Shown here piece by piece: positions 2,365 through 43,324 of a stretch of DNA of 43,346 bases. Position 1 is the stretch's first letter; each line of letters begins with the position of its first letter. Source of the stretch: a phage; NCBI GenBank assembly GCA_031490115.1, contig GCA_031490115.1_4355.1. One strand, written 5' to 3'. A program made the translations under genes and the position numbers. The notes beneath the pieces were generated by a model. It was not told where the DNA came from and ran no database searches. It saw only the letters and a list, made by a program, of their open reading frames with translations.

Positions 2365-2393
2365 AATAGTAGCCTATTCTATCTTAGTGTGCA
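2365..2393 (-). promoter_or_regulatory. sigma70-like promoter (TTGCAC-N17-TACTAT), leftward
   Basis: Minus-strand reading: -35 TTGCAC (2388-2393), 17-nt spacer, -10 TACTAT (2365-2370); same architecture as promoters at 3501, 26218 and 35065. Confidence 0.6.
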
Positions 2394-2551
2394 AGTAAAT
2401 TTTATTGGTGTTTGTATTGTTGCATCTCCTGCAATAGTCGCTTGGATTGTTGCGTTTGGTGAAAGTGTCGCCTTTTGACGACACTAAGTTAAAGTTGTAC
2501 GCTGCTGTGTAGCAGCGTAAGTCACTCAGTAAAATCCCAAACTATTGAACA

Positions 2552-3474: not shown

Positions 3475-3500
3475 TCCTTATGTCTCGTTTCGATAAGTGA

Positions 3501-3529
3501 ATAGTATCCTATTATGTTGGGGTGTGCAA
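3501..3529 (-). promoter_or_regulatory. sigma70-like promoter (TTGCAC-N17-TACTAT), leftward
   Basis: -35 is the reverse complement of 3524-3529, -10 the reverse complement of 3501-3506, 17-nt spacer. Confidence 0.6.
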
Positions 3530-3691: not shown

Positions 3692-3838
3692 TAACAATAG
3701 ACTTTGACCCTTCCGAAAGCGTCAGCGGAACTACACTCAAGTGCCTAATGGCACGCGTTGCGTTCCCTGCCGCTCCGCGGTCGCTTGCGATATCTCACAA
3801 GCTCAGTGAAGCTTAGCATATTTTCAAGTAAAAGTCAA
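3692..3838 (-). repeat. copy A of a duplicated promoter-plus-leader element
   Basis: About 80 percent identical to 34856-34998. Minus-strand -35 TTGACT (3833-3838), 17-nt spacer, TGn-TAAGCT -10 (3810-3815), then a conserved leader with hairpin GTGCC-taat-GGCAC (3741-3754). Confidence 0.6.
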
Positions 3839-3885
3839 TACCAGTAGCATCTTTTGTATTTTAGTAACTTTGCGTGGTGTTTTGG

Positions 3886-3914
3886 TTGCTTTTACAAAGT
3901 TACCGCCTTATACT
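3886..3914 (+). promoter_or_regulatory. candidate sigma70-like early promoter, rightward
   Basis: TTGCTT-N17-TATACT, 30 nt upstream of the first plus-strand gene. Confidence 0.4.
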
Positions 3915-3943
3915 TCGATACATATTACACAGGAGAGCGCGAG

Positions 3944-4114
3944 ATGACTATCAATGAAGTTGCAGAATTAATCGGCGTCACCCGCCAGACGATCAATAAC
4001 TGGATTAAGAGTGGAAAGTTTCCTGATTGCAGCGTTAAAGTAATGGGGCGCCGTTTACCAGGAACATTTGACCGTAATAAAGTTGAAGCATGGATTAAGG
4101 AGAACGTGAAATGA
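3944..4114 (+). CDS. HTH DNA-binding protein (AlpA/Xis-like)
   Basis: MTINEVAELIGVTRQTINNWIKSGKFP... matches the AlpA/excisionase-type HTH pattern; AGGAGAG 8 nt upstream. Confidence 0.6.
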   Translation: MTINEVAELIGVTRQTINNWIKSGKFPDCSVKVMGRRLPGTFDRNKVEAWIKENVK

Positions 4115-4342
4115 TTGGGCGTATGGGTTGTTACTTTGAAAACGGTAAAGTTAAATACGAACGGTAAAGTTAAATACGGGTTTAAGTTTGCGTCGGAAAT
4201 TACTGACAGCGGATTCTATGCGGAAATATGTAAGCCTAATAATTTGTCGGAACCTACGCGCATTATTAAGATGTCAGCAGACGTGTTAAGTAAATGCCGC
4301 TTCTATGATTCCGAGCACGCGTGGTTTTCTGGTTGTAAATAA
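4115..4342 (+). CDS. hypothetical protein (uncertain start)
   Basis: Six-frame ORF with a TTG start; the tandem repeat at 4141-4179 lies in its 5' end. Confidence 0.3.
   Translation: MGVWVVTLKTVKLNTNGKVKYGFKFASEITDSGFYAEICKPNNLSEPTRIIKMSADVLSKCRFYDSEHAWFSGCK
4141..4179. repeat. tandem direct repeat, two copies of AACGGTAAAGTTAAATACG
   Basis: 19-nt unit at 4141-4159, one base, then the unit again from 4161. Confidence 0.7.
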
Positions 4343-4410
4343 AAGAAACCCCAACGCCAGAACGTCGGGGCTAAAGTACAAATCATCAAAGTAAGCATAA
4401 GGATTATACA

Positions 4411-4539
4411 ATGACAAAGTTAATAGTTCCACAGCTACGCCGCCAGAAACACGGCGCTGACTTCTTCGCACCGGTAAAGATGAACCGCGCAATGCGCCGT
4501 ATGCAGGAAGCCTTAGAACGTGCGGAGAAAAAGAAATGA
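4411..4539 (+). CDS. hypothetical small basic protein
   Basis: 42-aa ORF behind AAGGA; its TGA overlaps the ATG of the primase-helicase gene. Confidence 0.4.
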   Translation: MTKLIVPQLRRQKHGADFFAPVKMNRAMRRMQEALERAEKKK

Positions 4540-6788
4540 ATATTGTTTTTGCAACGCTGCGTAACACATTCGATAAAAACCCTGTAGCGCGTGAAATGCC
4601 GCTGGAGCAGTTCGTAGAGTATGTCTGCGATACATCGAAGCGTTTATCCGTGGACCCGTCATGGACTAAGGAAGAGTACGACGCGGCCAAGATTAAACAG
4701 AAAGCTATTGCGCCTGTTGGCGGTCGCCGTAAGAACGCTATTCTGGAAGACAGTGTGGTTAAGTTCGATTTTGACCATCTCAACCGTACTCAGTACCGCG
4801 ACCTTACCCGCAAATTCAAGAACGCACCGTTCTTCAATATTCTGCATACAACGGCATCGCATCAGCATGTGTGTAAAAACGGTGATTACGCCTTCCGCGT
4901 TCTCGTACCGGCTCGCACGCCGTTTAACTCTAACGACGCGTGGATGGTCCAACGGGCTATTTGTGCAGAGTTAGAAATAGATGAAGCCTTGCGTGACCAC
5001 TGCACGGAAGACGGCAACCGCCTTATCTATCTGCCACATAGAGAGTCAAAGATAACGGTTACAGAAGGGCGTGTTATCCGTGCCGAGCGGTACATCAAGA
5101 AAGCCGAAGAGATGGGGTTGAGTAAACGTGAAGTTAAGACACTTGCCGCCGATGAGTATGGGCTTAATGCTGATATAGCGCATTTCTGCGAAGCCGAGCT
5201 TGGCCTTGACGCTTTATCTTCCGGGCGCGGGTACGAAGTCCCATGCCCTAACGAACATCTGCATACAGGCAAAGGCTCCACAAGCATCATGCTTGATGGT
5301 AAAGAAGTGCGCTTTGTGTGCCGGCATACAAACAACGGCGCTTGCACCGAGCTTAACCGCCGACAGCATTTGGCCCTGCGTATGTGCGGCCTGCCAGACG
5401 AGCTTAACGTAGACAAGCAACCTATCAGTATTAACAGCATTCGTGCGGCTCTGCCTGATTTACCGGATGAAGAGATTGAAGAACTGCACCGCACAGAGAA
5501 CGAGGAGCCTGTAACTTGCACGCTGGAAGACCTTGAAGAAGAGGACGAGTTACCAGAACCGGTAAAGGCTGATTTCATCGTAGAAGGGTACATGCCGTCA
5601 GATTGTATCTGGGATATTGTCGGGGAATCCGGCACGTACAAATCATTCTATACGCTGGGGATGATGTACCTTAGCGCCGCCGGATACCGGTTTGCGGGGG
5701 CTGACACCCAACGTTGCCACCATTTCTATATTGACGGCGAGGGTGGTGCAGCTACACGAACACGTATTGATGCACTCGCGGCTAAATATGGCGAGGAAGG
5801 TAAAGATTATGTACATGTCATCGATATGGGCGAAATACTCGCTACGCATGGTGATAAAAAAATTCCAGCTCTAATCCGCAGGATGCGCGAAACCGCAGGG
5901 GATGAACCTATTGGCATGGTTGCCTTCGACACCCTTAACCAGACGCTGGCCCTGACGATTGATAAGTTCGACGAGAACAGTTCATCAACGGCAATCGGTA
6001 TGGGTAAAGTTATCGCCATCCTGAAAGAAGTGCGCGATGCAACTAAAGCCGCTGTCGGTGTCGTTCACCATACTCCGAAGGGCGGAAAGAAAGCCCGCGG
6101 CAGTGGAGCATTGTATGCGGGTGTCGACGTGGAACTGACAATCGAACGCGCTACCGACCGTCAGATAAACGTATACCACTCTAAATTTAAGCACGGTCCG
6201 CAACAGAAGACGGTTGGCATGGTACTGGAGTCTGTACAGTTCCGTGAAGCACCGCCGCCGAAAGAGTACCGCGCGGTTGAGTTCCTCGGTAGCACAGAGG
6301 AATACGGCACAATAGTAAACCTCGACCTGCCTGAGCCGCACAAGGCGCTTGTATTGATGCCGTGGGGCTTCGAGCCATTCAAGACCGACGAGGAGAAAGA
6401 GAGGGAAGAAGGGTTAACTAACGAAGGTAAACAAAATGTACGTAAAACCATAGAGAACGCCGTCAACAGTTCCGAGGCCACGATACTCGCGGCGTTTGAA
6501 CTGGCGGAGGGGACCTACAACGGCAACGAGGGCATCACGGTATCCGCAGCGAATAAGCTCGCGCAGTCTGGCCCCAACGCAAAGGCGTTTAACTCCAAAG
6601 AAGCCATAGAACGCGGGAAGATTAAGAAAATGGTTGAGGCTGGGTATCTTGTTCCGGGTACTGACGAAAACAATCAGATAATCCCAGGCCGTTACAGACT
6701 GAACACCATGATAACAGATAACAAGATTCCGAAGACAATATACGAACCGAATGAAATGCTGACAGTGACCGAGGAGGATTTGGAATGA
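4536..6788 (+). CDS. putative primase-helicase (RecA-like/AAA_25 ATPase domain)
   Basis: 750 aa; Walker A GESGTYKS, DnaB/RepA-like motifs (FDTLNQ, VGVVHHTPKGG), Cys/His cluster CPNEHLH...C...C upstream. Confidence 0.65.
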   Translation: MNIVFATLRNTFDKNPVAREMPLEQFVEYVCDTSKRLSVDPSWTKEEYDAAKIKQKAIAPVGGRRKNAILEDSVVKFDFDHLNRTQYRDLTRKFKNAPFFNILHTTASHQHVCKNGDYAFRVLVPARTPFNSNDAWMVQRAICAELEIDEALRDHCTEDGNRLIYLPHRESKITVTEGRVIRAERYIKKAEEMGLSKREVKTLAADEYGLNADIAHFCEAELGLDALSSGRGYEVPCPNEHLHTGKGSTSIMLDGKEVRFVCRHTNNGACTELNRRQHLALRMCGLPDELNVDKQPISINSIRAALPDLPDEEIEELHRTENEEPVTCTLEDLEEEDELPEPVKADFIVEGYMPSDCIWDIVGESGTYKSFYTLGMMYLSAAGYRFAGADTQRCHHFYIDGEGGAATRTRIDALAAKYGEEGKDYVHVIDMGEILATHGDKKIPALIRRMRETAGDEPIGMVAFDTLNQTLALTIDKFDENSSSTAIGMGKVIAILKEVRDATKAAVGVVHHTPKGGKKARGSGALYAGVDVELTIERATDRQINVYHSKFKHGPQQKTVGMVLESVQFREAPPPKEYRAVEFLGSTEEYGTIVNLDLPEPHKALVLMPWGFEPFKTDEEKEREEGLTNEGKQNVRKTIENAVNSSEATILAAFELAEGTYNGNEGITVSAANKLAQSGPNAKAFNSKEAIERGKIKKMVEAGYLVPGTDENNQIIPGRYRLNTMITDNKIPKTIYEPNEMLTVTEEDLE

Positions 6789-7099
6789 ATATTTACGATT
6801 TTATAGATAACCCGTTTAAAGCAGTGAAGGCAGGATACCGCCCGTCATACCTGACATGTGTTTCCGCTGTAAGCAACAACTGGTGGACTTTTTGTGTGTA
6901 TGCAGCGGGGATTTTTGCGGAGTTTAAAGACATTTTAGACATGACGCTGGCAGAGATTATAAAGTGCCTTTTCAAATTAATTATATCGATAACTATTGTT
7001 ATAAGTTTTCCTGTAAGTGCGTGGTTTCTCGCCTGGATTCAGTACCTGAACGTGCAACACACTATTAAGAATTTGGAAGAACTCGATAAGTTGCTATAA
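6785..7099 (+). CDS. hypothetical membrane protein (AT-rich gene)
   Basis: 104 aa, two hydrophobic helices, coupled to the upstream gene through GAGGAGGATTTGGAATGA; visibly lower GC than its neighbours. Confidence 0.5.
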   Translation: MNIYDFIDNPFKAVKAGYRPSYLTCVSAVSNNWWTFCVYAAGIFAEFKDILDMTLAEIIKCLFKLIISITIVISFPVSAWFLAWIQYLNVQHTIKNLEELDKLL

Positions 7100-7102
7100 A
7101 AA

Positions 7103-7125
7103 GAAAGGGGCTTTAAGCCCCTTCA
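7103..7125. terminator. bidirectional hairpin terminator between convergent genes
   Basis: AAGGGGCTT-t-AAGCCCCTT, a perfect 9-bp stem, between the 6785-7099 gene and the convergent XRE gene. Confidence 0.6.
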
Positions 7126-7328
7126 CCTAACGCCAGCCACTTGGCGTCTACTTCCAGAACTTCCGCCAGTTTGAACAGCGTTGCCGGGCGGACGTCCTGA
7201 GTTACTCCAAGTGCCAGTTGGTTAATCGCGCCCTGGGAAACGCCGGTCAGGGCCGCCAAACGGCGCTGGGAGATGCCGAGTTCTTTACGGCGTTGTTCTA
7301 CACGGATACCTAGTTCAGATGGTTGCAT
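7113..7328 (-). CDS. XRE-family HTH transcriptional regulator (Cro/CI-like)
   Basis: 71 aa, RRKELGISQRRLAALTGVSQGAINQLALG is a classic XRE HTH; AAGGAG 8 nt upstream. Confidence 0.8.
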   Translation of the reverse strand: MQPSELGIRVEQRRKELGISQRRLAALTGVSQGAINQLALGVTQDVRPATLFKLAEVLEVDAKWLALGEGA

Positions 7329-7359
7329 GTCAGTTACTCCTTAGTCAGTTGATATGTGA

Positions 7360-7388
7360 ATAGTACCATATTAATTATTTTAGAAAAG
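7360..7388 (-). promoter_or_regulatory. candidate promoter of the XRE regulator gene
   Basis: -10 TACTAT (reverse complement of 7360-7365) with a poor -35; contains the GAATAG/TATT dyad. Confidence 0.4.
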
Positions 7389-7392
7389 CCCA

Positions 7393-7421
7393 TTGACATG
7401 TGAATAGTTCGCTATTATAGT
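7393..7421 (+). promoter_or_regulatory. sigma70-like promoter (TTGACA-N17-TATAGT), rightward
   Basis: TTGACA 7393-7398, 17-nt spacer holding the GAATAG-N4-CTATT dyad, TATAGT 7416-7421. Confidence 0.65.
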
Positions 7422-7449
7422 TAGCCCATACCAAACGAGAGGGGCAGAT

Positions 7450-7677
7450 ATGAACACAATCACTGGGGCCATAGCTAAAGGTTTTCGAGCAATTTTCGGC
7501 GCTCCGCAAGAAGTGTGCACAAAACATAAATTTGTACTTTCTTGCGTAGTAGGGGATGAGTTTGATGGGTTCGATAAACTTGTTGTCTGTGACCATTGCG
7601 GGCAAGAAGCTATTCAACACTCAAACGGTAAATTTGAACTAATAGACGATAGCCTTACAGAAGGCGACGGTGAGTAA
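7450..7677 (+). CDS. hypothetical small Cys-containing protein (zinc-ribbon-like)
   Basis: 75 aa with C...C...CDHC. Confidence 0.45.
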   Translation: MNTITGAIAKGFRAIFGAPQEVCTKHKFVLSCVVGDEFDGFDKLVVCDHCGQEAIQHSNGKFELIDDSLTEGDGE

Positions 7678-7701
7678 CTTACACAAACAGGAGAGAAACA
7701 A

Positions 7702-8211
7702 ATGTTAGAACAATTCTTAAAATTACTGGAGCGTTTCGTAGTTGCACATGAACTGATTGCTGCGAACAGTGCACGCCGTACCGAACTGCCGAAGGCTATC
7801 ACGGCGCCATATGGTAAAGACGTCGACAGTGGTGTCGCAGAAACTGCAACAATCACGCCTACTGTTGTAAAAGAAGAAACAAAAGAAATCCCGGTTGAAG
7901 GTGAAGACGTCGTTGACACCAAACCAGCAGAAGAAGAGAAGCCGAAACGCAAGCCGCGTAAACCTAAAGTAGAGGAGTCTACGCCAGAACCGGAAGAAGA
8001 GGTCGATTACAAGTCTCTGCGTGACCAGATTCAGGCCATCGACGATGCAATTAATGAAGGTCCTAGCGATGCCGCGTGCGACGATTCTGATGAACTGCTG
8101 GAAGAGTTCACTGGTAAGAAAATGAAGATTGCAGCGATTAAAGACGAAGACCTGGCTGAATACCTGGAACGCCTGACAGCAATCAAGAACAAGTATTTCG
8201 AAGAAGAATAA
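7702..8211 (+). CDS. hypothetical highly acidic protein
   Basis: 169 aa, Glu/Asp-rich with one basic patch KPKRKPRKPK; SD AGGAGAG upstream. Confidence 0.5.
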   Translation: MLEQFLKLLERFVVAHELIAANSARRTELPKAITAPYGKDVDSGVAETATITPTVVKEETKEIPVEGEDVVDTKPAEEEKPKRKPRKPKVEESTPEPEEEVDYKSLRDQIQAIDDAINEGPSDAACDDSDELLEEFTGKKMKIAAIKDEDLAEYLERLTAIKNKYFEEE

Positions 8212-8254
8212 CTATCAGGCGGCCTTCGGGCCGCTTTAACGGAGGGGCGGAAAT

Positions 8255-8527
8255 ATGATTTACCAACTCTACCGCGCCGTAGACAGGCGGGATAACACAG
8301 AGGCGTTGTGGCTGTTGCGTGCGCCGTCCGGTGCGCACCAGATGGAAGAGATGGCGTACTTAGGCAAAGTACCGCGTCCTAAAGATATAGGTCGTCACGT
8401 GTCGCAGATTAAGCGCACGACATTCGCCAAGCCCGACTTTTATGTCTTCGAGTCGATGTATGGATGGGCCTTACATTGCGACCACAAGACACGGCATTTA
8501 ATTGACCAGTGGGAGAACAGAGCATGA
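8255..8527 (+). CDS. hypothetical protein
   Basis: 90-aa ORF behind GGAGGGG; ATGA overlap with the nuclease gene. Confidence 0.45.
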   Translation: MIYQLYRAVDRRDNTEALWLLRAPSGAHQMEEMAYLGKVPRPKDIGRHVSQIKRTTFAKPDFYVFESMYGWALHCDHKTRHLIDQWENRA

Positions 8528-9765
8528 TTCTAAAAGAACGCGGTGGCAATAATGATGTGCACGCCTTATTGTCGCCGTCAGGTGCTAAGAAGTGGCTGAC
8601 GTGCAGTGCATCACTGGCCTGTGAAAAAGATATCCCTAACACGTCGGGTAAAGCCGCTGTATTAGGAACCGCCATGCACACCATAGCTGAGGTCCATCTC
8701 AACGCCTATATACGCGGCACTGCGTTGCCGTTGGAGCGTGAAGTCGGCGCTTACGTACTGGATGAAGGCAAAGGTCAGATTAAGGCGCTAATCAGCCCGA
8801 TGAAAGGCGCGGTACTGATTACGGCGGACATGATTGAGCAGGTGCGCAAGTACACCGACTACTGCAAAGCGATTATAGACGTAGCGACTTACGCCAAGCT
8901 GGAAATGCGTGTCAATCTTACTGAGGTATTGCATCCGGGGTATGAAGGCGTTGAGACGTTCGGAACCGCTGATCTCGTTGCTGTCCAGGAACTGGCAAAC
9001 ACCGACGAGCACATGCTCATTATCGGCGACCTGAAAACCGGGCGGCATCGCGTCGAAGCGAAAGAAAACAAGCAGCTTATGCTTTACGCTCTCGGTGTTT
9101 ATCGTCGACTCAAGAGACGTTATAACATAACAACCGTTCGTCTGGTCATCTTCCAGCCTTACGCTGGGGGTGCGACAGAGTGGGGCATCTCGGTTGAAGG
9201 ACTGGAACTGTTCGCTAAGTTCGCACAGAAACGCGCGCTGTTAGCGCTTGATGCGTATTTCCGTGGCAAGAAGAACCTGAAAGCGTCGGACTTCAAGCCA
9301 TCGGTAGATGGTTGTCAGTGGTGCCGGTTCTCTGAACAATGCGCTGCGCGTACAAAGACGGTTAATTCTGTACTGGCGGAAGAACTGGAAGACGACTTTG
9401 TGCTGGAACTGACGCCGGAGCAACTCGTAGCTGAGTATGAGAAGTTGCCGCTGTTGCGCCAGCACATCGACAAGGTTGAGAAAGCTATGGCGGCCGCGTT
9501 GCATTCAGGTAAGAAAGTTCCTGGTTACAAGTTGGTTGAGGGCCGCCCGGGCAATCGTGCGTGGAAAGACGCAGAGAAAGTGGCTGGCAAGTATGGCATA
9601 GCGCTAATGAAGCAAGTGCTCATGACGCCAACCGAAGCGGCTAAAGTCATACCGGAAGATGAACTGAAAGACTTCATTACCCGTAAGCCAGGCGCACCAT
9701 GTGTTGCAACGGCAGACGACAAACGTCCTGAGTGGAATAGGGTAACAGAGGAGGATTTAGAATGA
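8524..9765 (+). CDS. PD-(D/E)xK nuclease, Cas4-like (DUF2800-type)
   Basis: N-terminus HALLSPSGAKKWLTC, then GTAMH, DLKTG, and a C-terminal Cys cluster CQWCRFSEQC, as in Cas4/DUF2800 phage exonucleases. Confidence 0.7.
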   Translation: MILKERGGNNDVHALLSPSGAKKWLTCSASLACEKDIPNTSGKAAVLGTAMHTIAEVHLNAYIRGTALPLEREVGAYVLDEGKGQIKALISPMKGAVLITADMIEQVRKYTDYCKAIIDVATYAKLEMRVNLTEVLHPGYEGVETFGTADLVAVQELANTDEHMLIIGDLKTGRHRVEAKENKQLMLYALGVYRRLKRRYNITTVRLVIFQPYAGGATEWGISVEGLELFAKFAQKRALLALDAYFRGKKNLKASDFKPSVDGCQWCRFSEQCAARTKTVNSVLAEELEDDFVLELTPEQLVAEYEKLPLLRQHIDKVEKAMAAALHSGKKVPGYKLVEGRPGNRAWKDAEKVAGKYGIALMKQVLMTPTEAAKVIPEDELKDFITRKPGAPCVATADDKRPEWNRVTEEDLE

Positions 9766-9965
9766 TTCAAGTAAATGAAATGCCCACAGATAAAGATTTT
9801 GTGATGATATGGCGCTGGGGCGGTTATATCCATTCGGAATCGTTTACGTTCCTGAACGGCACGATGGTGCGATACAACCATGTGGAGGATGAATTCGAAC
9901 CCGTTGATATGAATGATTTCGAGAACATAGTCCGTATTGCGAAATTTTATTTGACACCTGAATAG
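9762..9965 (+). CDS. hypothetical protein
   Basis: 67 aa, coupled through GAGGAGGATTTAGAATGA. Confidence 0.45.
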   Translation: MIQVNEMPTDKDFVMIWRWGGYIHSESFTFLNGTMVRYNHVEDEFEPVDMNDFENIVRIAKFYLTPE

Positions 9966-9979
9966 TTAGCTATTATAGT
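9951..9979 (+). promoter_or_regulatory. sigma70-like promoter (TTGACA-N17-TATAGT)
   Basis: TTGACA 9951-9956, spacer with GAATAG-ttag-CTATT, TATAGT 9974-9979. Confidence 0.65.
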
Positions 9980-10038
9980 TCTAATCACTGACCGGGCAGC
10001 TTCCCGGAGTAAACGAAACTTAAAAGCGAGAAATTAAG

Positions 10039-10665
10039 ATGGGTATTAAACTGAATCTGCGTAAAGTAAACACTGCTTGGGTTAACGTATTTGAACGTGA
10101 AAAAGACCGTGAAAACGATGATGGCTCAATCACTAAAGGCCAGTACAGCGCGACTATCATCCTGCCGTCTGACCATGCTCAAATCGATGCACTCTACGAC
10201 ACCGTTTACGCTGTAGTTGAAGAAGCGTTAGGCGCAGCCGCTGCCGAGAAATGGATGAAGTCCAACTACGGTGAAGGTAAGCACATGGATAAATGCGCGA
10301 TTAAAGACATTGCCGAGCGCGACAATCCGTTTGAAGACTTCCCGGAAGGCTTCTACTTCAAAGCGAAGGCACAGAAACAGCCGCTGATTGTAACCTCTAA
10401 AAAAGGTGAGACTCAGGTAGAGCAGGACTTCAACGTAGACGGCGAACAGATTGAAGGTGAACAGGTTTACAGCGGATGCTTAGCTAACGTAAGCGTTGAA
10501 ATCTGGTTCAGCCAGAAATACAAAGTCCTCGGCGTTAACCTGCTGGCGATTAAATACGTTGGCGAAGGCAAAGCGTTCGGCGGTTCTAAAGTCGCCGCGA
10601 GCGTCAATGACCTGGAAGATGACGAAGAAGATGAAGTACCGCGCCGTGAACGTCGTCGCCGCTAA
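10039..10665 (+). CDS. putative ssDNA-binding protein (DUF2815-like)
   Basis: 208 aa with an acidic C-terminal tail DLEDDEEDEV; lies between the Cas4-like nuclease and the DNA polymerase, as in the DUF2800-DUF2815-PolA module. Confidence 0.5.
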   Translation: MGIKLNLRKVNTAWVNVFEREKDRENDDGSITKGQYSATIILPSDHAQIDALYDTVYAVVEEALGAAAAEKWMKSNYGEGKHMDKCAIKDIAERDNPFEDFPEGFYFKAKAQKQPLIVTSKKGETQVEQDFNVDGEQIEGEQVYSGCLANVSVEIWFSQKYKVLGVNLLAIKYVGEGKAFGGSKVAASVNDLEDDEEDEVPRRERRRR

Positions 10666-10685
10666 TATCTGAATCAATTTTAACT

Positions 10686-10708
10686 AAGGCCCTTCATTGG
10701 GCCTTTTT
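10686..10708 (+). terminator. rho-independent terminator
   Basis: GGCCC-ttcatt-GGGCC followed by TTTTT. Confidence 0.65.
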
Positions 10709-10725
10709 ACTAGGGGTCAAAAATA

Positions 10726-12906
10726 ATGAGTTACCTGTTCTTAGACTTTGAAACATTCTCAGAAGCCGATTTGAAGAAAGTCGGTTCTTACGCTTACGCC
10801 GAACACCCGTCAACCGAAGTGCTTATCTGTACATATGCTTTTGACGACGAACCTGTGCGGGTATGGGATTGCACCGACGGCAGCGACATGCCGGTGGGTT
10901 TACACCGCGCACTGCGCCGCCTTGTTAAGCCCAACAGCCGCATCAAGATGGTGTGGCACAACGGCTCAATGTTCGACAGGCTCATCATGAAACACTGCTG
11001 GGGCTTTGATATTCCCGTAAGCAACACCATTGATACGATGATTTGGGCGTTTCGTCACGCGCTGCCGGGTTCACTTGACGCATTGTGCGAAGTGCTTGGC
11101 GTGTCCGCCGACAACGCGAAAGACAAACGAGGCAAGGCGCTGATTCAGCGTTTCTCTAAACCGACGCCGAAGAACTACAAAATCCGCCGCTACACCGCTG
11201 AAACACATCCCGATGAGTGGGCGCTGTTCATCAAGTATGCCGTTAGCGACATTACTGCGATGCGTGAAGTCTTCCATAAGCTGCCGCGGTGGGGTAACTC
11301 GGAGTTCGAAGACCGTGTACTGGAACTGGACCAGTTAATCAATGACCGTGGGTTTAAGGTTGACGTCGCGCTGGCGGAAGCTGCAATTGAAGCTGTGGAG
11401 AAACACAAGGCGCAGTTACAGGAAGAAGCCCAACGCAATTACGGCGGCTCACTTACCGGTAAAGACTTTCTGCCTATTCTGCGTGAACTCGCCCCCGCGC
11501 ACCGCATCCACAATGCACAGAAGTCGACGCTGAATGACCTTCTTGCTGATGATGATTTACCGGACGACGCCCGGATGATTATCGAAATGCGCCTCGGGGC
11601 CGCGTCAACAGCGTCAACGAAATATACCCCGCTGCTGCTGGGCCGCTCTTCGGACGACCGCCGACGCGGTTGCATACAGTATGGTGGAGCTAAGCGTACA
11701 TTACGATTTGCCGGTAAAGGCTTCCAGCCGCAGAACCTGGCGCGCGGGTACTATCATGATGATGAACTGGATAAAGGCATTTCTGCGTTACTTAAGGGCC
11801 GTGCGCACCGCCGATTTGACGTAGCCAAGCTAACGGCATCGACGGTTCGCAGTTGCATCATACCGGAAGCAGGGCATAAGTTTGTCGTCGCCGATTACTC
11901 TAACGTTGAGGGTCGCGGGCTTGCGTGGCTGGCAGGCGAAGAAACCGCGCTAGATACGTTCCGCGCCGGGCTGGATATTTACTGCGTAACAGCGGGTAAG
12001 ATGTTCGGCATGGAGCCGGATTACATTAAGAAGGAACGTAAAGACTTACGCCAGATTGGTAAGGCCTGCGAACTTGGACTCGGCTACGCCGGGGGTGTTG
12101 GTGCTTTCGTTCAGTTTGCTAAGAACCTCGGCCTCGACCTTGTTGATATGGCTAAAACAATGGACGGGACATTCCCCGACCACATATGGGCTTCTACCGC
12201 GCGCGGGTACGAGTGGGCGCGTATTCAGGAAGCCAAGCGACCACCGCGTCCGGGTGAAAAGGATGACCGACCATCATATATTCTTGATAAGAAAGTCTGG
12301 CGTACATGCGACGCAATTAAGCGTATGTGGCGGGAGTCCCACCCGGAAACAGTAGCTTTCTGGCGTGATATTGAAGACGCAGCTATGGCAGCAATCCGTA
12401 ATCCGGGGAAAGAGTTCACCGCTGGCCCTCGCGGGGTTAAGTTTTCTCGCAACGTAGAAACGGACAACAACGGCAACAAAGTCGCTGGTTGGTGGTTGCG
12501 CATGACGTTGCCGTCAGGTCGCGTTATGTCATACCCGGGCGTCGGGTTGAGCGTGTCAAAAGAGACAGACGAAGACGGAAAAGTTTCTACTAACGTGCGC
12601 ATCAAGTATCAGGGTGAAAATCAGTTAACCAGGCAGTGGGGCTTCCAGTACACCTACTCCGGTAAACTGGTGGAAAACTGCACTCAGGCACTGTGCCGTG
12701 ACTTGCTGGCTAATGCGCTACTTAACGTTGAAGCAAACGGCTACCCGATTGTACTTCACGTACACGATGAGATTATCTGCGAGACACCAGATTTACCAGA
12801 ATACAATGTTGCAGAGCTTGAGCGATTGATGTGCGAATTACCAGAATGGGCGGAGGGGTTCCCTCTTGTAGCGGAAGGTCAGGAGTTAAAACGCTATGCT
12901 AAGTAA
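10726..12906 (+). CDS. family A DNA polymerase with 3'-5' exonuclease domain
   Basis: 726 aa; Exo I LDFETFS, O-helix-like RQIGKACELGLGYAGG, motif C VHDEII. Confidence 0.9.
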   Translation: MSYLFLDFETFSEADLKKVGSYAYAEHPSTEVLICTYAFDDEPVRVWDCTDGSDMPVGLHRALRRLVKPNSRIKMVWHNGSMFDRLIMKHCWGFDIPVSNTIDTMIWAFRHALPGSLDALCEVLGVSADNAKDKRGKALIQRFSKPTPKNYKIRRYTAETHPDEWALFIKYAVSDITAMREVFHKLPRWGNSEFEDRVLELDQLINDRGFKVDVALAEAAIEAVEKHKAQLQEEAQRNYGGSLTGKDFLPILRELAPAHRIHNAQKSTLNDLLADDDLPDDARMIIEMRLGAASTASTKYTPLLLGRSSDDRRRGCIQYGGAKRTLRFAGKGFQPQNLARGYYHDDELDKGISALLKGRAHRRFDVAKLTASTVRSCIIPEAGHKFVVADYSNVEGRGLAWLAGEETALDTFRAGLDIYCVTAGKMFGMEPDYIKKERKDLRQIGKACELGLGYAGGVGAFVQFAKNLGLDLVDMAKTMDGTFPDHIWASTARGYEWARIQEAKRPPRPGEKDDRPSYILDKKVWRTCDAIKRMWRESHPETVAFWRDIEDAAMAAIRNPGKEFTAGPRGVKFSRNVETDNNGNKVAGWWLRMTLPSGRVMSYPGVGLSVSKETDEDGKVSTNVRIKYQGENQLTRQWGFQYTYSGKLVENCTQALCRDLLANALLNVEANGYPIVLHVHDEIICETPDLPEYNVAELERLMCELPEWAEGFPLVAEGQELKRYAK

Positions 12907-13027
12907 ACTGATTATCGCGGTACTGGCGGGATTTGCCGCAGGTGTCTACTGTCACGAGGGTCAATACGGCATGATGGTTGCCATATTGGGCATGTTCATC
13001 GCAATTTATCTGTGGGTGCTGGAATGA
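12896..13027 (+). CDS. tiny hydrophobic peptide (43 aa)
   Basis: First of three ORFs chained by ATGA overlaps; single predicted TM helix. Confidence 0.3.
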   Translation: MLSKLIIAVLAGFAAGVYCHEGQYGMMVAILGMFIAIYLWVLE

Positions 13028-13113
13028 AAATTTACCGGTTCTACGAAGAAGACTGCCGAATCTGTCCGCGCTGCGGGATTGAGCATACGAAACGTGAGGG
13101 GTGTGTATTATGA
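13024..13113 (+). CDS. tiny Cys-rich peptide (29 aa)
   Basis: CRICPRCG motif; ATGA-coupled on both sides. Confidence 0.25.
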   Translation: MKIYRFYEEDCRICPRCGIEHTKREGCVL

Positions 13114-13262
13114 CAATGTTTGTATTTAGGACCATAGTAACCATGCTCGCACTGTTACTCGGCGCGGGAATAGCTGCGATGTTCTGTTACGGCCTGTTCT
13201 TTCAGTTTGCCGGTGTTGCCCTTCTAGGCGGGGCTTTCCTTACCTGGATGCTGCGGTCATGA
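13110..13262 (+). CDS. tiny hydrophobic peptide (50 aa)
   Basis: Two hydrophobic stretches; TGA overlaps the VRR-NUC start. Confidence 0.3.
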   Translation: MTMFVFRTIVTMLALLLGAGIAAMFCYGLFFQFAGVALLGGAFLTWMLRS

Positions 13263-13543
13263 CTAAAGAGGGCCGCATCCAGAAATACGCAAAAGAGCGA
13301 TTTGAGGCCATCGGGGGCCTCGTCCGTAAACTGTCTTATGAGGGGCGCTCCGGCGCTCCCGACCTGCTGGTAATTCTCCCGGGCGGCATCGTCTGGTTCG
13401 TCGAGGTGAAGAAAGACGAAAGCACGAAGCCTGACCCACACCAGTTACGAGAGCATGAGCGGATGCGTAAACGTGGTGCGAATGTTTTTGTCGTCGGGTC
13501 GTTCAAACAGGTTGACGACCTAGTAGCGAGCTATTATAGTTAG
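13259..13543 (+). CDS. VRR-NUC domain nuclease
   Basis: 94 aa; PDLLVILPGG...FVEVK is the PD-(D/E)xK core of VRR-NUC proteins. Confidence 0.75.
   Translation: MTKEGRIQKYAKERFEAIGGLVRKLSYEGRSGAPDLLVILPGGIVWFVEVKKDESTKPDPHQLREHERMRKRGANVFVVGSFKQVDDLVASYYS
13512..13540 (+). promoter_or_regulatory. sigma70-like promoter (TTGACG-N17-TATAGT)
   Basis: Lies in the 3' end of the VRR-NUC gene; same spacer dyad family. Confidence 0.55.
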
Positions 13544-13573
13544 TCATACACCAACAATATAAGGAATTGAGAA

Positions 13574-13768
13574 ATGAAACACGAATATGACCGCAAACCA
13601 GCACGTGACATCGTACCTGGCGACATGATTTTCAACGTTAAGACCCGCCAGCCTGTTGCCGTTGATACTGTGTTCGTCGAGTCAAACGGTAAACTGGTTA
13701 TCGAAGATGTAACAAGCAACGTTACCGCGTTCGGGCGTAAAGAGCTGGTACTCTACGTTAAGGATTGA
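13574..13768 (+). CDS. hypothetical protein
   Basis: 64-aa ORF behind AAGGAA. Confidence 0.45.
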   Translation: MKHEYDRKPARDIVPGDMIFNVKTRQPVAVDTVFVESNGKLVIEDVTSNVTAFGRKELVLYVKD

Positions 13769-15195
13769 ACATGTCTAAATTTATCCGTCGAGAGTACCAG
13801 AAGCTCATGACCTCGTTCATGCTGCAACACCCGCGCTGTAATATCTGGTGCGGAATGGGGGGAGGTAAAACCTCCTCCACTATGTGGGTGCTCAACCGCC
13901 TGTTCCGCAACGGGCAGCTTACGGAAGAGGACCGCGTGTTAATCCTTGCCCCGTTACGTGTTGCGTCCGGTACGTGGCCCGCTGAACAAGAGAAATGGCA
14001 ATTCCCTTGTCTGCGTGTCGTAGATGCAACTGGTTCGGAGAAGCGCCGCATCGCAGCGCTGGAGTCAGATGCTAACGTGGTGTGCACTAACTACGAAGTT
14101 ATCGAGTGGCTAATTGACTACTACGGCAAAGACGACTGGCCTTTTACGGTTATCGTTGCCGATGAAAGCACGAAGCTTAAATCGTTCCGCAGCCGTTCGG
14201 GTGGTAGCAAGCGGGCAAAGGCGCTCAGCAAGGTTGCGTTCGGAAAGGTTAAGCGTTTCATCAACCTGACAGGCACACCGTCACCAAACGGCCTCAAAGA
14301 CTTGTGGGGTCAGAACTGGTTTATCGACGCTGGCGAGCGCCTCGGCTCTTCGTACACAGCATTCACCGACCGCTGGTTTAACTCGGTACAGAAAGGTAAA
14401 TCGGCCATGGCCCGCGAGTATCATGCACGACCGGGTGCGGATAATGAGATTCATCAGAAGATGAAAGACATCAGCCTGACCATAGACCCTGCCGAGTGGT
14501 TTGGTTGTGAAGCGCCTGTTATCGTACCGGTGGAAATAGACCTGCCGAAGAAAGCGCGTCAGGCGTACATAGATATGGAGGAGAAGTTATTCGCAGAACT
14601 GGAGAGCGGGGAAGTTGAAGCGGCTAACGCTGCGGCGAAGACCTCAAAGTGCTTGCAGATTGCATCTGGTGCTGTATATGTAACCGGGCCAGACGGCGAA
14701 GCAACCAAAGAATGGGAGAAAGTGCACGACACGAAACTGGATGCGCTCGAGTCGATTGTTGAGGAGTTGCAGGGTGCGCCGTTGCTGGTAGCCTATCAGT
14801 TTAAACACGAACTGGAGCGTATCCTTAAGCGATTCCCACAGGCACAGGCGTTCGCCAAAGGCGCTAGGGGGAACAAGCAGATGGAAGCGTGGAACCGTGG
14901 GGAAATCGAGATTTTATGCGTGCATCCTGCGTCAGCCGGGCATGGTTTGAATTTACAGGACGGGGGTCATCATCTGGCGTTCGTCTCGCAAGGCTGGAAC
15001 CTTGAGCACTATTTGCAGGTTGTCGAGCGCATAGGTCCAACACGCCAGAAACAGGCGGGTCACGAGCGCCCGGTGTTCCTTTATCACATCGTTGCTAAAG
15101 ACACTCTGGACGAGGTTGTCGCCGCGCGTACCGACGAGAAGAAATCGGTACAGGAAGAGTTGCTTAATTACATGAAGAGACGAGGTAAGAAATGA
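13765..15195 (+). CDS. DEAD/DEAH-box (SNF2-like) DNA helicase
   Basis: Walker A GMGGGKTS, motif II VIVADESTKL, motif III LTGTPSPN, C-terminal helicase domain. Confidence 0.8.
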   Translation: MNMSKFIRREYQKLMTSFMLQHPRCNIWCGMGGGKTSSTMWVLNRLFRNGQLTEEDRVLILAPLRVASGTWPAEQEKWQFPCLRVVDATGSEKRRIAALESDANVVCTNYEVIEWLIDYYGKDDWPFTVIVADESTKLKSFRSRSGGSKRAKALSKVAFGKVKRFINLTGTPSPNGLKDLWGQNWFIDAGERLGSSYTAFTDRWFNSVQKGKSAMAREYHARPGADNEIHQKMKDISLTIDPAEWFGCEAPVIVPVEIDLPKKARQAYIDMEEKLFAELESGEVEAANAAAKTSKCLQIASGAVYVTGPDGEATKEWEKVHDTKLDALESIVEELQGAPLLVAYQFKHELERILKRFPQAQAFAKGARGNKQMEAWNRGEIEILCVHPASAGHGLNLQDGGHHLAFVSQGWNLEHYLQVVERIGPTRQKQAGHERPVFLYHIVAKDTLDEVVAARTDEKKSVQEELLNYMKRRGKK

Positions 15196-15707
15196 TGGAT
15201 TTCGAAGAGTTTCTACTTAAAGCTCATCTGCTGGCGCGTGGGTTTGACGCTGACCGTCTCCAGGTAGTCTTAGCCCCTGGAGTAGCTACGTTTTACCTGT
15301 GGGGGTTTGACGGTAGGCTTCGCGGATACCAGCATTACAAACCACATGCCGAAAAGAACTGTAAAAACCCTAAAGACGCGCGGTACTTTACCAGAACAAC
15401 AAGGCCGTGTTTATGGGGGCTTGAGTATTTGCCGGAAAGCGGGGTGGTATTTGTTACCGAAAGCATATTCAAAGCCGTAGCCTTGATGAATTGCGGGTTC
15501 AATGCTGTAAGCGCACTGGGGTCAAATATATCAACAGACCTACGGCAGCAAATGTCACTTTTGCCGTATGACTGGGTGTGCGCTGGCGACAATGATAAAG
15601 CTGGATTAAAGTTCAGCAAAACATTCACCAGAGGATTTGTATCTAACGACCTTGATGAACTTTGTGAAGAAGAAATAACGTATCTTGCGAGGAAATTTAC
15701 CAGATGA
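15192..15707 (+). CDS. Toprim-domain protein (primase-like)
   Basis: VVFVTESIFKAVAL (conserved Glu) and CAGDNDKAG (DxD) fit a Toprim fold. Confidence 0.5.
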   Translation: MMDFEEFLLKAHLLARGFDADRLQVVLAPGVATFYLWGFDGRLRGYQHYKPHAEKNCKNPKDARYFTRTTRPCLWGLEYLPESGVVFVTESIFKAVALMNCGFNAVSALGSNISTDLRQQMSLLPYDWVCAGDNDKAGLKFSKTFTRGFVSNDLDELCEEEITYLARKFTR

Positions 15708-26108: not shown

Positions 26109-26217
26109 TCTTTAATCCTTTGGTTAAGAGGTTACGGGTTAACGATAAATGCGCCAGACGGGAACCACCCGCTTTTCGTGTGCGACACTAGGCGCAAAAA
26201 TTATTCTACCACAATAC

Positions 26218-26246
26218 TTGCACACCCCAATATAATAGGGTACTAT
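26218..26246 (+). promoter_or_regulatory. sigma70-like promoter (TTGCAC-N17-TACTAT), rightward
   Basis: Same element as 35065-35093; 30 nt upstream of the Imm-like gene. Confidence 0.6.
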
Positions 26247-26276
26247 TCACTTACACCAACAATGGAGGGGTTTAAA

Positions 26277-26468
26277 ATGTCCAGTTTACCAGTTTCCTTA
26301 ATTCTGTTTGCACTGCTCGCTTATTTCGCGCCTTTCCTGGTTGCGTATTTCCGTAACCATAAAGCGAAATTAGCGATATTCATGGCTAATCTGTTTCTTG
26401 GATGGGTTCTGCTGCCGTGGGTATTTATTTTAATCTGGGCTTGCAACTCGAATGTCAAAGAGAAGTGA
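26277..26468 (+). CDS. superinfection immunity (Imm)-like small membrane protein
   Basis: 63 aa from the ATG behind GGAGGGG; YFAPFLVAYFRNHKAKLAIFMANLFLGWVLLPWVFILIWA fits the Imm-type two-TM pattern (YF.P...R.H...AIF..N.FLGW). Confidence 0.6.
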   Translation: MSSLPVSLILFALLAYFAPFLVAYFRNHKAKLAIFMANLFLGWVLLPWVFILIWACNSNVKEK

Positions 26469-26505
26469 GCTAGTATAGGACAAATCCTAAGCACGAGGAA
26501 TAAAC

Positions 26506-26787
26506 ATGGCCCGGAAGAAAATAACCGACGAACAGTTGCAGGAAGAATTGAACGCCGGTATGAAGAATGTAGATATCGCCCGTAAATACGGCATCTCAGA
26601 CCGCGTAATTCGTATCCGTAAAGCGAAGCTGGCTAAGAAAGGCGTGGGCCACGGGCGCGACGTTAGCCACCTTGTGCCAGACGGCTACAAGATTAAAGGA
26701 ACGTCGTCACTTGTGGACGAGTTCGGCAACACTAAGTTGCAATGGGTTAAGACTGATACCGACGCCGAACGTCGGGTTGAATTGTAG
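26506..26787 (+). CDS. putative HTH DNA-binding protein
   Basis: 93 aa; NVDIARKYGISDRVIRIRKAKL is HTH-like. Confidence 0.45.
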   Translation: MARKKITDEQLQEELNAGMKNVDIARKYGISDRVIRIRKAKLAKKGVGHGRDVSHLVPDGYKIKGTSSLVDEFGNTKLQWVKTDTDAERRVEL

Positions 26788-26798
26788 AAAGCCGTAAC

Positions 26799-26951
26799 AT
26801 GATTGTTGAGCAACACCGCACCTTAGCGGCTAAAGACGCCTACGCCTCTCGCGGCGGATGGATGTCGGGCCGCAGTGCAAATGTAATTACTTATAGCGCC
26901 GAATATGGCGAGGTCGCACGTTTAACTATTTCACCGGAGATGCTGGGATGA
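26799..26951 (+). CDS. hypothetical small protein (50 aa)
   Basis: ORF not in the six-frame list; TGA overlaps the ATG of the phosphatase gene. Confidence 0.3.
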   Translation: MIVEQHRTLAAKDAYASRGGWMSGRSANVITYSAEYGEVARLTISPEMLG

Positions 26952-27436
26952 AAGATATTGTAATTTTCGATTTAGACGGGACATTGGCTGACGGTACCCA
27001 TCGCTTACACCTGTTACCAAAAGATAACTACGGAGAAACGTGGGCGTGGAAGCCATTTAACATGGCCTGCAAAGATGACGCTCCGATATACGACAATATC
27101 CATTTGTGTAGCGTACTGTGGCATTCCGGACTTACTATAATTATCCTTACCGGGCGAAGTGATGACGCTGAGGAGGAGACTCGCGAATGGTTACGAGAGA
27201 ATAACGTTAGGTTTGACACGCTAATCATGCGCAGCAAACACGACAACAGAAAAGACATCGTAATTAAAGAAGAGGTGTTGCGTGCTTTCGGACTGGAAAG
27301 AATCTTGTGTGCGTTCGACGACTCTCCAGCGGTAATAAAGCATTTCCGTGACCTCGGCATAACCGCACACGCAGTTACCGAATACGACTGTAACGGGAAC
27401 TCTACACACTTAAAACCACACGGGAGCGATAAATAA
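26948..27436 (+). CDS. HAD-family phosphatase resembling the 3'-phosphatase domain of T4 polynucleotide kinase
   Basis: Motif I IVIFDLDGTLADG, motif II ILTGRSD, motif III DNRKDIVIKEEV and a C-terminal FDDS acidic motif parallel the T4 Pnk phosphatase domain. Confidence 0.65.
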   Translation: MKDIVIFDLDGTLADGTHRLHLLPKDNYGETWAWKPFNMACKDDAPIYDNIHLCSVLWHSGLTIIILTGRSDDAEEETREWLRENNVRFDTLIMRSKHDNRKDIVIKEEVLRAFGLERILCAFDDSPAVIKHFRDLGITAHAVTEYDCNGNSTHLKPHGSDK

Positions 27437-34855: not shown

Positions 34856-34998
34856 CAATAGAGCACGGCCCTTCAGAACGCGTCAGCGTAACTACACTCA
34901 GGACTTACGTCCCGCTCCGTTACCTGCCCGCGCCGCGGTCGTTTGTTCATACTTCACAAGCTCAGGTGGAGCTTAGCACATTTTTAGTGAAAAGTCAA
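34856..34998 (-). repeat. copy B of the duplicated promoter-plus-leader element
   Basis: Minus-strand -35 TTGACT (34993-34998), 17-nt spacer, TGn-TAAGCT (34970-34975); conserved leader; hairpin GGAC-ttac-GTCC (34901-34912) replaces copy A's GTGCC-taat-GGCAC. Confidence 0.6.
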
Positions 34999-35064
34999 CT
35001 ATTCGAATAGTTTATTCCAACATTTACAATTCGGTGGAATAACTGGAATACGTAAATAAATAGT

Positions 35065-35093
35065 TTGCACACCCCAATATAATAGGGTACTAT
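35065..35093 (+). promoter_or_regulatory. sigma70-like promoter (TTGCAC-N17-TACTAT), rightward
   Basis: A 28/29-nt match to the promoter at 26218-26246. Confidence 0.6.
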
Positions 35094-35120
35094 TCATTCT
35101 ATCGAACCGAGGAGGCCGTC

Positions 35121-37244: not shown

Positions 37245-37276
37245 TTGATTAAATTCTACATTCAAATGTAGAATTT
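37245..37276 (+). promoter_or_regulatory. promoter with embedded 26-bp palindromic operator
   Basis: TTGATT (37245-37250)-N18-TAGAAT (37269-37274); perfect 12-bp inverted arms AAATTCTACATT/AATGTAGAATTT at 37251-37276 around a CA centre. Confidence 0.55.
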
Positions 37277-43295: not shown

Positions 43296-43324
43296 AATAT
43301 AATAGGGTCGAGGATAATAGTCAA
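43296..43324 (-). promoter_or_regulatory. sigma70-like promoter (TTGACT-N17-TATATT), leftward
   Basis: -35 is the reverse complement of 43319-43324, -10 the reverse complement of 43296-43301. Confidence 0.55.

Follow-up and report, generated by a model that had tools for sequence, protein, structure and literature searches.

A dyad repeated in the promoters of a lytic Kagunavirus-like phage as a candidate operator for its 434-Cro-like XRE protein

Layout of the XRE locus

We analyzed the control region beside an XRE-family regulator gene in the phage contig GCA_031490115.1_4355.1, together with a dyad, AATAG-N4-CTATT, that lies in this region and in promoters elsewhere in the genome. The whole stretch of 43,346 bases, referred to here as the window, is the complete, circularly permuted genome of a lytic Kagunavirus-like siphophage (Guernseyvirinae) of E. 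coli. By identity, its closest relatives were Escherichia phage vB_EcoM_SHAK7858 (94.6% over 7 kb) and the BASEL phage Bas70 (approximately 94%), and the 453 related records were chiefly Salmonella and Escherichia phages. Gene identities rest on the annotation of three relatives, Bas70, K1G and Jersey, and on tblastn searches of the open reading frames (ORFs) of the window against them. No repressor or integrase was found in the annotations of Bas70, K1G and Jersey. The window has five ORFs of at least 700 amino acids (aa), namely the helicase-primase, the DNA polymerase, the tailspike, a tail protein and the tape measure.

The XRE gene is transcribed leftward and is separated by 121 bp from a rightward operon, in which the gene divergent from XRE encodes a 75-aa protein and the replication genes come next (Table 1). 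Two copies of the dyad, O-left and O-right, lie in this region with their centers 44 bp apart. The original prediction, which was made from the DNA letters, held that both back-to-back promoters between 7330 and 7430 contain the dyad. This is correct for the rightward promoter, in which the copy is exact, but the leftward copy (7358-7372, GAATAGTACCATATT) has one mismatch and the leftward promoter has no TTGCAC -35 element. The mismatch, AATAT for AATAG, is a G-to-T change that yields the extended -10 element TGG-TACTAT, which fits the missing -35 of the XRE promoter. O-left is nearly invariant across Kaguna-type genomes, and the -35 of a second promoter-like site that points leftward, TTCACA-N16-TAAAAT, overlaps with O-right as well.

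The dyad recurs in sigma-70-type promoters

The 15-mer GAATAGNNNNCTATT has seven exact matches over both strands of the window at six loci (2364/2365, 3499, 7402, 9960, 26234 and 35081), compared with 0.01 expected in shuffled sequence, and none of 100 shuffles gave seven. AATAG-N4-CTATT is also the commonest 5+5 inverted repeat of the genome, terminator hairpins excepted, and the most frequent inverted repeat in K1G and Salmonella phage Jersey as well. A half-site position weight matrix (PWM) was trained on eight window sites and scanned over the window. Ten sites scored at least 14.5, the next best scored at most 10.8, and all ten lay within sigma-70-type promoter-like regions, between about -40 and -6 of a -35/-10 pair as counted from inferred transcription starts. 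Two of these sites, 43316-43329(-) and 34990-35003(-), were outside the training set, and both overlap the -35 hexamer TTGACT. The claim that the dyad is repeated in promoters genome-wide, for which such a matrix search had been proposed, was therefore borne out. All copies listed in the original prediction are there, but its list lacked these two weaker ones, and the copy that it placed in the 13512 promoter, although present, differs from the 15-mer at two positions (13521, TAGTAGCGAGCTATT). Relatives mostly carry the exact AATAG at this promoter. Site quality thus ranges from a perfect 16-bp palindrome (GAATAGTAGCCTATTC, 2364-2379) around the 2365-2378 copy through one mismatch at the XRE promoter to the degenerate copy at 13522, and the best form of the dyad in the Kaguna-type genus is TGAATAG-N4-CTATTCA.

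The two promoter classes described in the original prediction were found at the coordinates that it gave. In class A, the layout is TTGACA-nn-TGAATAG-nnnn-CTAT/TATAGT (the slash marks the start of the -10 hexamer), with the dyad in the spacer and its center at about -18.5. TTGACA-N17-TATAGT occurs at 7393-7421 and 9951-9979, and a TTGACG version occurs at 13512-13540, all on the (+) strand. Class B promoters read TTGCAC-N9/10-AATAG-nnnn-CTATTCA, with TACTAT as the -10 and the dyad center at about -12.5; four instances of TTGCAC-N17-TACTAT were found (Table 1), compared with 0.24 expected. All class B copies and the XRE promoter are followed within about 35 nt by TACTATTCAYHTAYC, a ribosome-binding site and a start codon, which fixes their direction. 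Two further sites lie over -35 elements. The promoter at 43296-43324 is the top sigma-70 match in its half of the genome, and its candidate operator is kept in K1G and also in Jersey, with the imperfect half swapped. The weak copy at 34990-35003 was found in K1G and was not found in Jersey, and its membership in the dyad set is uncertain. In the dyad copies of the 43324 and 34998 promoters, the four bases at the center, TTGA, are at the same time the start of the -35 hexamer.

Table 1. Positions of genes, promoters, dyad copies and other features in the window (position 1 is its first base)
Feature	Position	Strand	Details
Leftward small genes and lysis cassette	3474->98	-	
HTH_17 and helicase-primase operon	3925-7099	+	
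XRE gene	7113-7328	-	ORF of 71 aa
Replication genes	7450-15707	+	
Tail, head and packaging genes	26108->15873, 34745->28019, 41280->35659	-	Broken up by small rightward cassettes
Hairpin terminator between convergent gene 6785-7099(+) and XRE gene (-)	7104..7124		Terminator scan: GAAGGGGCTTAAAGCCCCTTT, then T-run on - strand
O-left, candidate operator	7359..7372		AATAGTACCATATT, 1 mismatch; overlaps -10 TACTAT (7365->7360) and extended -10 TGG (7368->7366) of leftward XRE promoter; PWM 20.7
Class A promoter TTGACA-N17-TATAGT, rightward	7393..7421	+	O-right 7403-7416 in spacer, center ~-18.5
Class A promoter	9951..9979	+	Candidate operator 9961-9974; Gp2.5-like single-stranded DNA (ssDNA)-binding protein and DNA polymerase genes downstream
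Class A promoter TTGACG-N17-TATAGT	13512..13540	+	Degenerate candidate operator 13522-13535 (AGTAGCGAGCTATT), PWM 16.4; 5' of 13574-15707 (helicase operon)
Class B promoter TTGCAC-N17-TACTAT	2366..2394	-	Candidate operator 2365-2378, overlaps -10, center ~-12.5; leftward genes 2334->98 including holins and endolysin
Class B promoter	3501..3529	-	Candidate operator 3500-3513; leftward small genes 3474->2552
Class B promoter	26218..26246	+	Candidate operator 26234-26247; rightward cassette 26178-27990
Class B promoter	35065..35093	+	Candidate operator 35081-35094; 35219-35563 (114-aa product)
Promoter TTGACT-N17-TATATT	43296..43324	-	1-mismatch candidate operator ACTAG-TTGA-CTATT (43329->43316) over -35, center ~-33.5, PWM 16.9; leftward small genes 42982->
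Weak operator-like copy AATAG-TTGA-CTTTT	34990..35003	-	Over -35 TTGACT (34998->34993) of TTGACT-N17-TAAGCT promoter, 5' of head/tail genes; PWM 14.5
Promoter TTGCTT-N17-TATACT	3887-3915	+	Dyad-free; 5' of HTH_17/helicase-primase operon
Promoter TTGACT-N17-TAAGCT	3838->3810	-	Dyad-free
Promoter TTGATT-N18-TAGAAT	37245-37274	+	Dyad-free
Promoter-leader unit 1	3700-3838	-	Upstream of leftward small genes and lysis cassette
Promoter-leader unit 2	34860-34998	-	Upstream of head/tail genes

Conservation of the dyad and the promoter consensus

The comparison covered 59 loci around XRE homologues from viral contigs as well as the complete genomes of K1G, Jersey and SE1. Exact dyads were present in 39/39 Kaguna-type loci (two to six each) and 12/12 Jersey-type loci (two to four each), and in 0/5 SE1-type loci. 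The rightward promoter beside the XRE gene carries TTGACA, TG plus AATAG, and CTATT in 39/39 Kaguna-type genomes each. In the same 39 promoters, the central 4 bp take six forms, and the gap of 2-3 nt between the -35 and the dyad takes 11 forms, including an indel. Invariant half-sites around a free center are the pattern that a dimer would leave, with two contacted halves and a non-contacted center. Additionally, the dyad center lies at -33.5, -18.5 and -12.5 in the window and at about -15.5 in relatives (Jersey 16957, SE1 32106). Because it is found at four registers, the dyad is no fixed sigma contact or promoter element.

These data bear on the explanation that no regulator is involved and that the dyad is an intrinsic part of a duplicated promoter family, kept by promoter function and shared ancestry, with, for example, the A/T-rich CTATT giving -10-like hexamers. 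Such an origin would account for the right half of the dyad, which always merges with a -10-like hexamer (CTAT/TATAGT, TACTAT or TATTAT), and for the opposite strand at three class B sites, which reads CTATTATRTT and has a -10-like hexamer too. A long block common to class B promoters, TTGCACACCCCAAYAT, also suggests duplication. However, the second half-site of the promoters in both classes falls within the spacer, which sigma-70 does not contact base-specifically, and is nevertheless invariant while neighboring spacer bases and the central 4 bp vary. The four registers (one of them over the -35), the symmetry retained at every site and a genus-specific flank change that occurs in two promoter classes at once also disagree with it. 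We regard an origin in promoter function and ancestry as improbable. The data thus argue against the possibility raised in the original prediction, that the dyad might prove to be part of the promoter consensus.

The opposite strand of the class B sites 3500-3513, 26234-26247 and 35081-35094 reads CTAT/TATATT or CTAT/TATGTT in the class A register. At 3490 and 35105, the opposite-strand -10-like hexamers have TCGATA 17-18 nt ahead, and the opposite-strand copy at 26234 faces the tail operon, for which no other promoter was recognizable. From this arrangement, one class B operator may be placed on back-to-back promoters. The spacer block ACCCCAAYAT is common to 3/4 class B promoters (not that at 2394) and takes a variant form in the Jersey counterparts.

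A change in the base 5' of AATAG separates the genera. This base is G in Kaguna-type phages (34/34 at the 9951-type promoter and 39/39 at the 7393-type promoter, with CTATTCA in class B) and T in Jersey-type phages (12/12 at the 9951-type promoter, with CTATTAC in class B). At the promoter of the ssDNA-binding protein gene, the surrounding 50 nt are otherwise nearly identical between the two types.

The conservation also speaks to a host origin, in which a DNA-binding protein of E. coli or Salmonella would read the dyad and tie the phage promoters to host physiology. In favor of such a reader, the AATAG-N4-CTATT core does not differ between phages that infect two host genera with nearly identical global regulators. 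Nevertheless, SE1-type phages infect Salmonella and do not have the dyad, and the flanking base differs by phage genus. To our knowledge, no host regulator has this half-site and spacing; the ArgR box (TGAAT-N4-ATTCA), the OxyR motif (ATAG-N7-CTAT) and the CRP and Fis sites are unlike the dyad in spacing or sequence. A host reader is therefore very unlikely in our view.

Candidate proteins that would bind the dyad

Pfam and PHROGs identified only two clear sequence-specific DNA-binding proteins in the window, the XRE protein (HTH_3) and a 60-aa HTH_17 protein; NinH-like and KilA-N-like proteins were weak matches below the Pfam cutoff. The XRE protein matched HTH_3 (PF01381) at residues 11-65 with an E value of 3.9e-13 and 49.7 bits against a gathering cutoff of 23. 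Its best PDB sequence matches were 434 Cro and 434 repressor, which aligned end to end at E values of about 1e-5. The AlphaFold2 (AF2) model has a predicted local distance difference test score (pLDDT) of 77 and helices at residues 5-17, 21-28, 32-39, 48-57 and 62-66. In a Foldseek search with this model, the top match was 2cro (40% identity, TM scores 0.75/0.81), followed by 434 repressor, P22 c2, SinR and C proteins. Database records name the protein "cro", "repressor" or "DicA".

The operators of phage 434 are pseudo-palindromes of 14 bp in which the outer 4-5 bp are conserved and the non-contacted center is variable. AATAG-N4-CTATT has the same 5+4+5 layout. The recognition helix of the XRE protein reads SQGAINQ in Kaguna-type phages and SQSLITH in Jersey-type phages, with 48% identity overall. 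The G/T change at the flank of the dyad follows the type of XRE protein and not that of HTH_17, because the HTH_17 helix varies within Kaguna-type phages and has one form shared with Jersey. Taken together, the likeness to 434 Cro, the two sites in its own 121-bp control region, the co-varying flank base and the dispensability of HTH_17 speak for the XRE protein, which the original prediction had named as the candidate binder, whereas the Jersey helix and the SE1-type phages speak against it. On sequence and model evidence, the XRE protein is the best candidate for the binder of the dyad, and we hold this view with somewhat more confidence than doubt.

Several observations weigh against the XRE protein. 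The Jersey XRE protein differs at 4/6 of residues Q32-Q37 (QGAINQ compared with QSLITH), but the AATAG core is the same in both genera. The flanking G/T base is T at the 13512-type promoter in both genera and is therefore not strictly required, and the two XRE-proximal copies of Jersey-type phages are their most degenerate ones. Moreover, SE1-type relatives keep an XRE orthologue at the same locus (41% identity, helix TQSAISH), and the exact dyad occurs in 0/5 of their loci. XRE homologues were found in Guernseyvirinae-like contigs only (a large protein search, in which relatives had 77-97% identity and mostly lay on contigs of phage size, about 28-45 kb), so that no independent genome background was available. 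Cross-genus conservation of the promoters in the replication module is partly due to recent ancestry, because the proteins of this module are 84-97% identical between the window and Jersey.

For the SE1-type phages, a pattern search, a repeat finder, k-mer counts and a reading of all intergenic regions found no replacement repeated dyad. Remnants of the dyad were present as AATAG-TAAA-GTATT, GATTAG-TTTA-GTATT and GAATTA-TTAA-ACTATT. In this group (L003 and L006; Salmonella phage SE1, 6781-7147, 10141-10227 and 32090-32125), the XRE orthologue heads the helicase-primase operon and does not stand alone. One SE1 promoter holds a 20-bp palindrome, AACAATAGTAAAGTATTGTT.

The dyad could instead be the operator of another phage protein, such as the Xis/MerR-like HTH_17 protein (3925-4107, within ORF 3854-4114), the NinH-like protein (41687-41947) or a small early protein. 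HTH_17 occurs in Kaguna and Jersey genomes alike (64-80% identity), and the dyad-free SE1 lacks it, a pattern that fits the dyad better than that of the XRE protein does. A more conserved binder would also explain why the AATAG core is unchanged despite the diverged XRE helix. Many small ORFs without a detectable family add to the pool of candidates. However, two Kaguna-type loci, L016 and L026, had no HTH_17 in the stretch searched and yet keep three and six exact dyads, respectively. The HTH_17 helix takes the forms VTRQTINNW, VTRRTLNNW and VSPMTLNRW within Kaguna-type phages, one of them shared with Jersey, while the dyad is unchanged, and no dyad lies near the HTH_17 promoter (3887-3915). 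We rejected HTH_17 as the main candidate because it is missing from loci that keep the dyad and because its helix changes where the dyad does not. The NinH-like protein scores under the Pfam cutoff, and such proteins also occur in the dyad-free SE1. The KilA-N-like protein is absent from K1G. Overall, we consider another phage binder unlikely, and the XRE protein remains our preferred candidate.

Where the window has HTH_17 and the N-terminal part of the helicase-primase (3925-6788), L016 (1323-4073) and L026 (10234-13008) encode a 149-aa protein of no relation to HTH_17, together with another primase N-terminus. This module swap suggests that HTH_17 works with the primase, in origin or operon control, and not with the dyads. 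Near copies of the 3887-3915 promoter occur in a subset of Kaguna-type loci.

Putative mechanism and relation to known systems

Overall, we propose that the dyad is an operator, most probably bound by a dimer of the 71-aa, 434-Cro-like XRE protein, which would exclude host RNA polymerase because every copy covers the -35, the spacer or the -10 of a sigma-70-type promoter. We hold this reading, which was built from sequence and a structural model, at slightly better than even. Sites inside the RNA polymerase footprint are the classic placement for repression by occlusion. The copies in the window overlap a -35, a spacer or a -10, and in the 39 orthologous copies, the half-sites are conserved while the center and flanks vary, as occlusion would predict. 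The dyad is solid as an observation and the mechanism is plausible; the XRE protein as binder, the repressive effect and the timing are what we infer from it.

In this putative mechanism, the XRE protein would be made early from its own extended -10 promoter and would sit on the dyad as a dimer, each half-site being read by one recognition helix in the manner of 434 Cro on operators of 14 bp. The support for the early timing comes from the coarse RNA sequencing (RNA-seq) of the Kagunavirus K1B4, in which a helix-turn-helix (HTH) gene is among four early-peaking genes, phage reads peak at 8.9% of the total and time classes are coarse (PMC12645636). From its place in the gene order, we infer that this HTH gene is the XRE homologue. 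Since O-left lies over the -10 of the XRE promoter, autoregulation is implied, and the protein would block host RNA polymerase there. As it accumulates, it would turn down about 10 promoters in all. Besides its own, these would include three strong, near-consensus promoters of replication genes and four promoters of small early or accessory genes, whose operons include a superinfection-immunity-like gene (phrog_1039, immunity to superinfection; in the 26178-27990 cassette) and, at a greater distance from one of these promoters, the lysis cassette. The 43324 promoter would be shut as well, making one or two others in all. Site quality of each operator may set the order in which promoters are shut off.

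The dyad-free units would keep running, namely the HTH_17/primase promoter (3887-3915), the 3838->3810 promoter, which belongs to one of two promoter-plus-leader units, and the 37245-37274 promoter. The original prediction spoke of a global switch acting through every such promoter. As a description of early and middle gene control this is fair, but it does not extend to every promoter: at least three promoter-like sites are dyad-free, including one of two units upstream of late genes.

The XRE protein and phage 434 Cro are both 71 aa long and share the same five-helix fold with 40% identity. The dyad and the 434 operators are both 14-bp pseudo-palindromes whose outer 4-5 bp are conserved and whose central 4-6 bp vary, and in both phages, operators overlap divergent promoters beside the regulator gene. 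However, the half-site is AATAG here and ACAA in 434, and unlike 434, the genome has no CI partner and no lysogeny module. Compared with the tripartite OR of 434, two candidate operators lie 44 bp apart here and about eight more are scattered in promoters of distant operons. A lambdoid immunity switch has a CI-type repressor (HTH plus S24 peptidase) and three adjacent operators; neither a repressor of this type divergent from XRE nor three adjacent operators were found here, and S24-containing relatives occurred only in unrelated contigs (L058-L062). With the Cro proteins of lambda and P22, the XRE protein would share the role of a small, early, dimeric repressor that turns down early transcription (PL and PR) in the lytic cycle. 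Nevertheless, the lambda Cro fold differs, and lambda and P22 Cro act at two operator regions in competition with CI, whereas this phage is strictly lytic and about 10 promoters are concerned. C proteins (C.AhdI and C.BclI), which rank high in the fold search, are likewise small XRE-fold proteins; they form dimers, bind palindromic boxes in their own promoter and autoregulate. In contrast to what we propose here, they control no operon but their own and act from adjacent boxes as activators as well as repressors; neither feature is indicated for the XRE protein.

The repeats themselves were already known. Two Kagunavirus genome papers (fBC-Eco01 and Golestan) list the same element, TGAATAGTACCCTATTATAT and related 20-mers, seven per genome, as PHIRE "phage promoters", and that on fBC-Eco01 assigns them to a phage RNA polymerase. 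In these papers, the repeats are treated as promoters, while the dyad symmetry, the embedding in sigma-70 promoters at varying register and a binding protein go unmentioned. Our literature search for a described operator or regulator of Jersey-like or Kaguna-like phages gave only such PHIRE lists. Beyond these lists, the assignment to a phage-encoded polymerase finds no footing in the window: no RNA polymerase gene was found among its ORFs (all those of at least 700 aa are otherwise identified), every site lies within a sigma-70 -35/-10 pair of good spacing, and the dyad is palindromic, unlike promoters of single-subunit RNA polymerases. We rejected this explanation for want of a polymerase gene and give it almost no chance.

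Repression by the XRE protein would extend a known mechanism and would reveal no new one; such a circuit would be real but fairly ordinary for a phage. Phages of Kagunavirus and Jerseyvirus are widely isolated for use in therapy and in food biocontrol, and their transcription program is essentially unstudied. If the proposal is true, a testable regulatory map would result, with one small repressor, about 10 operators and defined promoter classes, and a Cro-type protein would have been retained as a genome-wide early shut-off in a phage without lysogeny. The published attribution of the repeats to a phage RNA polymerase would be corrected, and the operators and the repressor might serve as parts for engineering these phages.

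We further speculate that lytic Guernseyvirinae run a whole lambdoid-style timing circuit without lysogeny, in which a Cro without CI shuts about 10 early and middle promoters through multi-register operators, class B operators control -10-like hexamers on both strands, and the late head, tail and lysis genes are read from promoter units that each run into a conserved structured leader RNA of about 110 nt and, for one copy at least, an intrinsic terminator, so that late expression would depend on antitermination of the put-like or Q-like kind. This broader model is doubtful at present.

Promoter-leader-terminator units and other features

Two leftward units (Table 1) are approximately 78% identical over about 150 bp and consist of a promoter TTGACT-N17-TAAGCT (3838->3810 and 34998->34970) and a GC-rich leader of about 110 nt. 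Downstream of unit 2, a strong intrinsic terminator (34789->34770) lies just ahead of the first late gene. At 34993-35008, a perfect 16-bp palindrome (AACTATTC/GAATAGTT) has the dyad half-sites in everted order, with its center at about -41.5 relative to the 34998 promoter; K1G has this palindrome and Jersey does not. For the leader RNA, independent predictions in 18 sequence variants agreed on one long, irregular stem, with an apical hairpin and the conserved loop GAGUGUAG. Compensatory changes occur in the stem at columns 38:97 (CG/UA/AU), 48:86 (AU/UA/GC) and 50:85 (AU/GC), and at least six stem sequences were counted for the apical hairpin. Folded as a single sequence, the leader was no more stable than shuffles (z = 0.09), so that the support for the structure comes from covariation, and Rfam gave no family match anywhere in the window, the leader included. 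Jersey holds a diverged counterpart of the unit. Judged from its sequence, the combination of promoter, leader and terminator looks like a late-gene arrangement that would need antitermination (put-like or Q-dependent), and it may be the more novel feature of the genome.

Strong hairpin terminators lie within or between co-directional operons at 8212-8254, 10686-10710, 28014-27995, 32398-32377 and 35655-35636; their locations include the interval between the ssDNA-binding protein and DNA polymerase genes and the 3' side of the major capsid gene. Because of these positions, read-through or antitermination must belong to the expression program.

The dyad-free 37245-37274 promoter holds a different 12-bp palindrome (AAATTCTACATT..AATGTAGAATTT) and lies 5' of 37306-37959, the 217-aa KilA-N-like gene, which Jersey has (89% identity) and K1G does not. 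This looks like a separate, self-regulated accessory gene.

Finally, at 26506-26947, the DNA-repair exonuclease gene is shortened to 93 aa, which correspond to residues 1-93 of the 376-aa K1G protein (97% identity), and 160 bp of non-coding DNA follow it. Together, these features indicate a deletion of about 0.7 kb relative to K1G.

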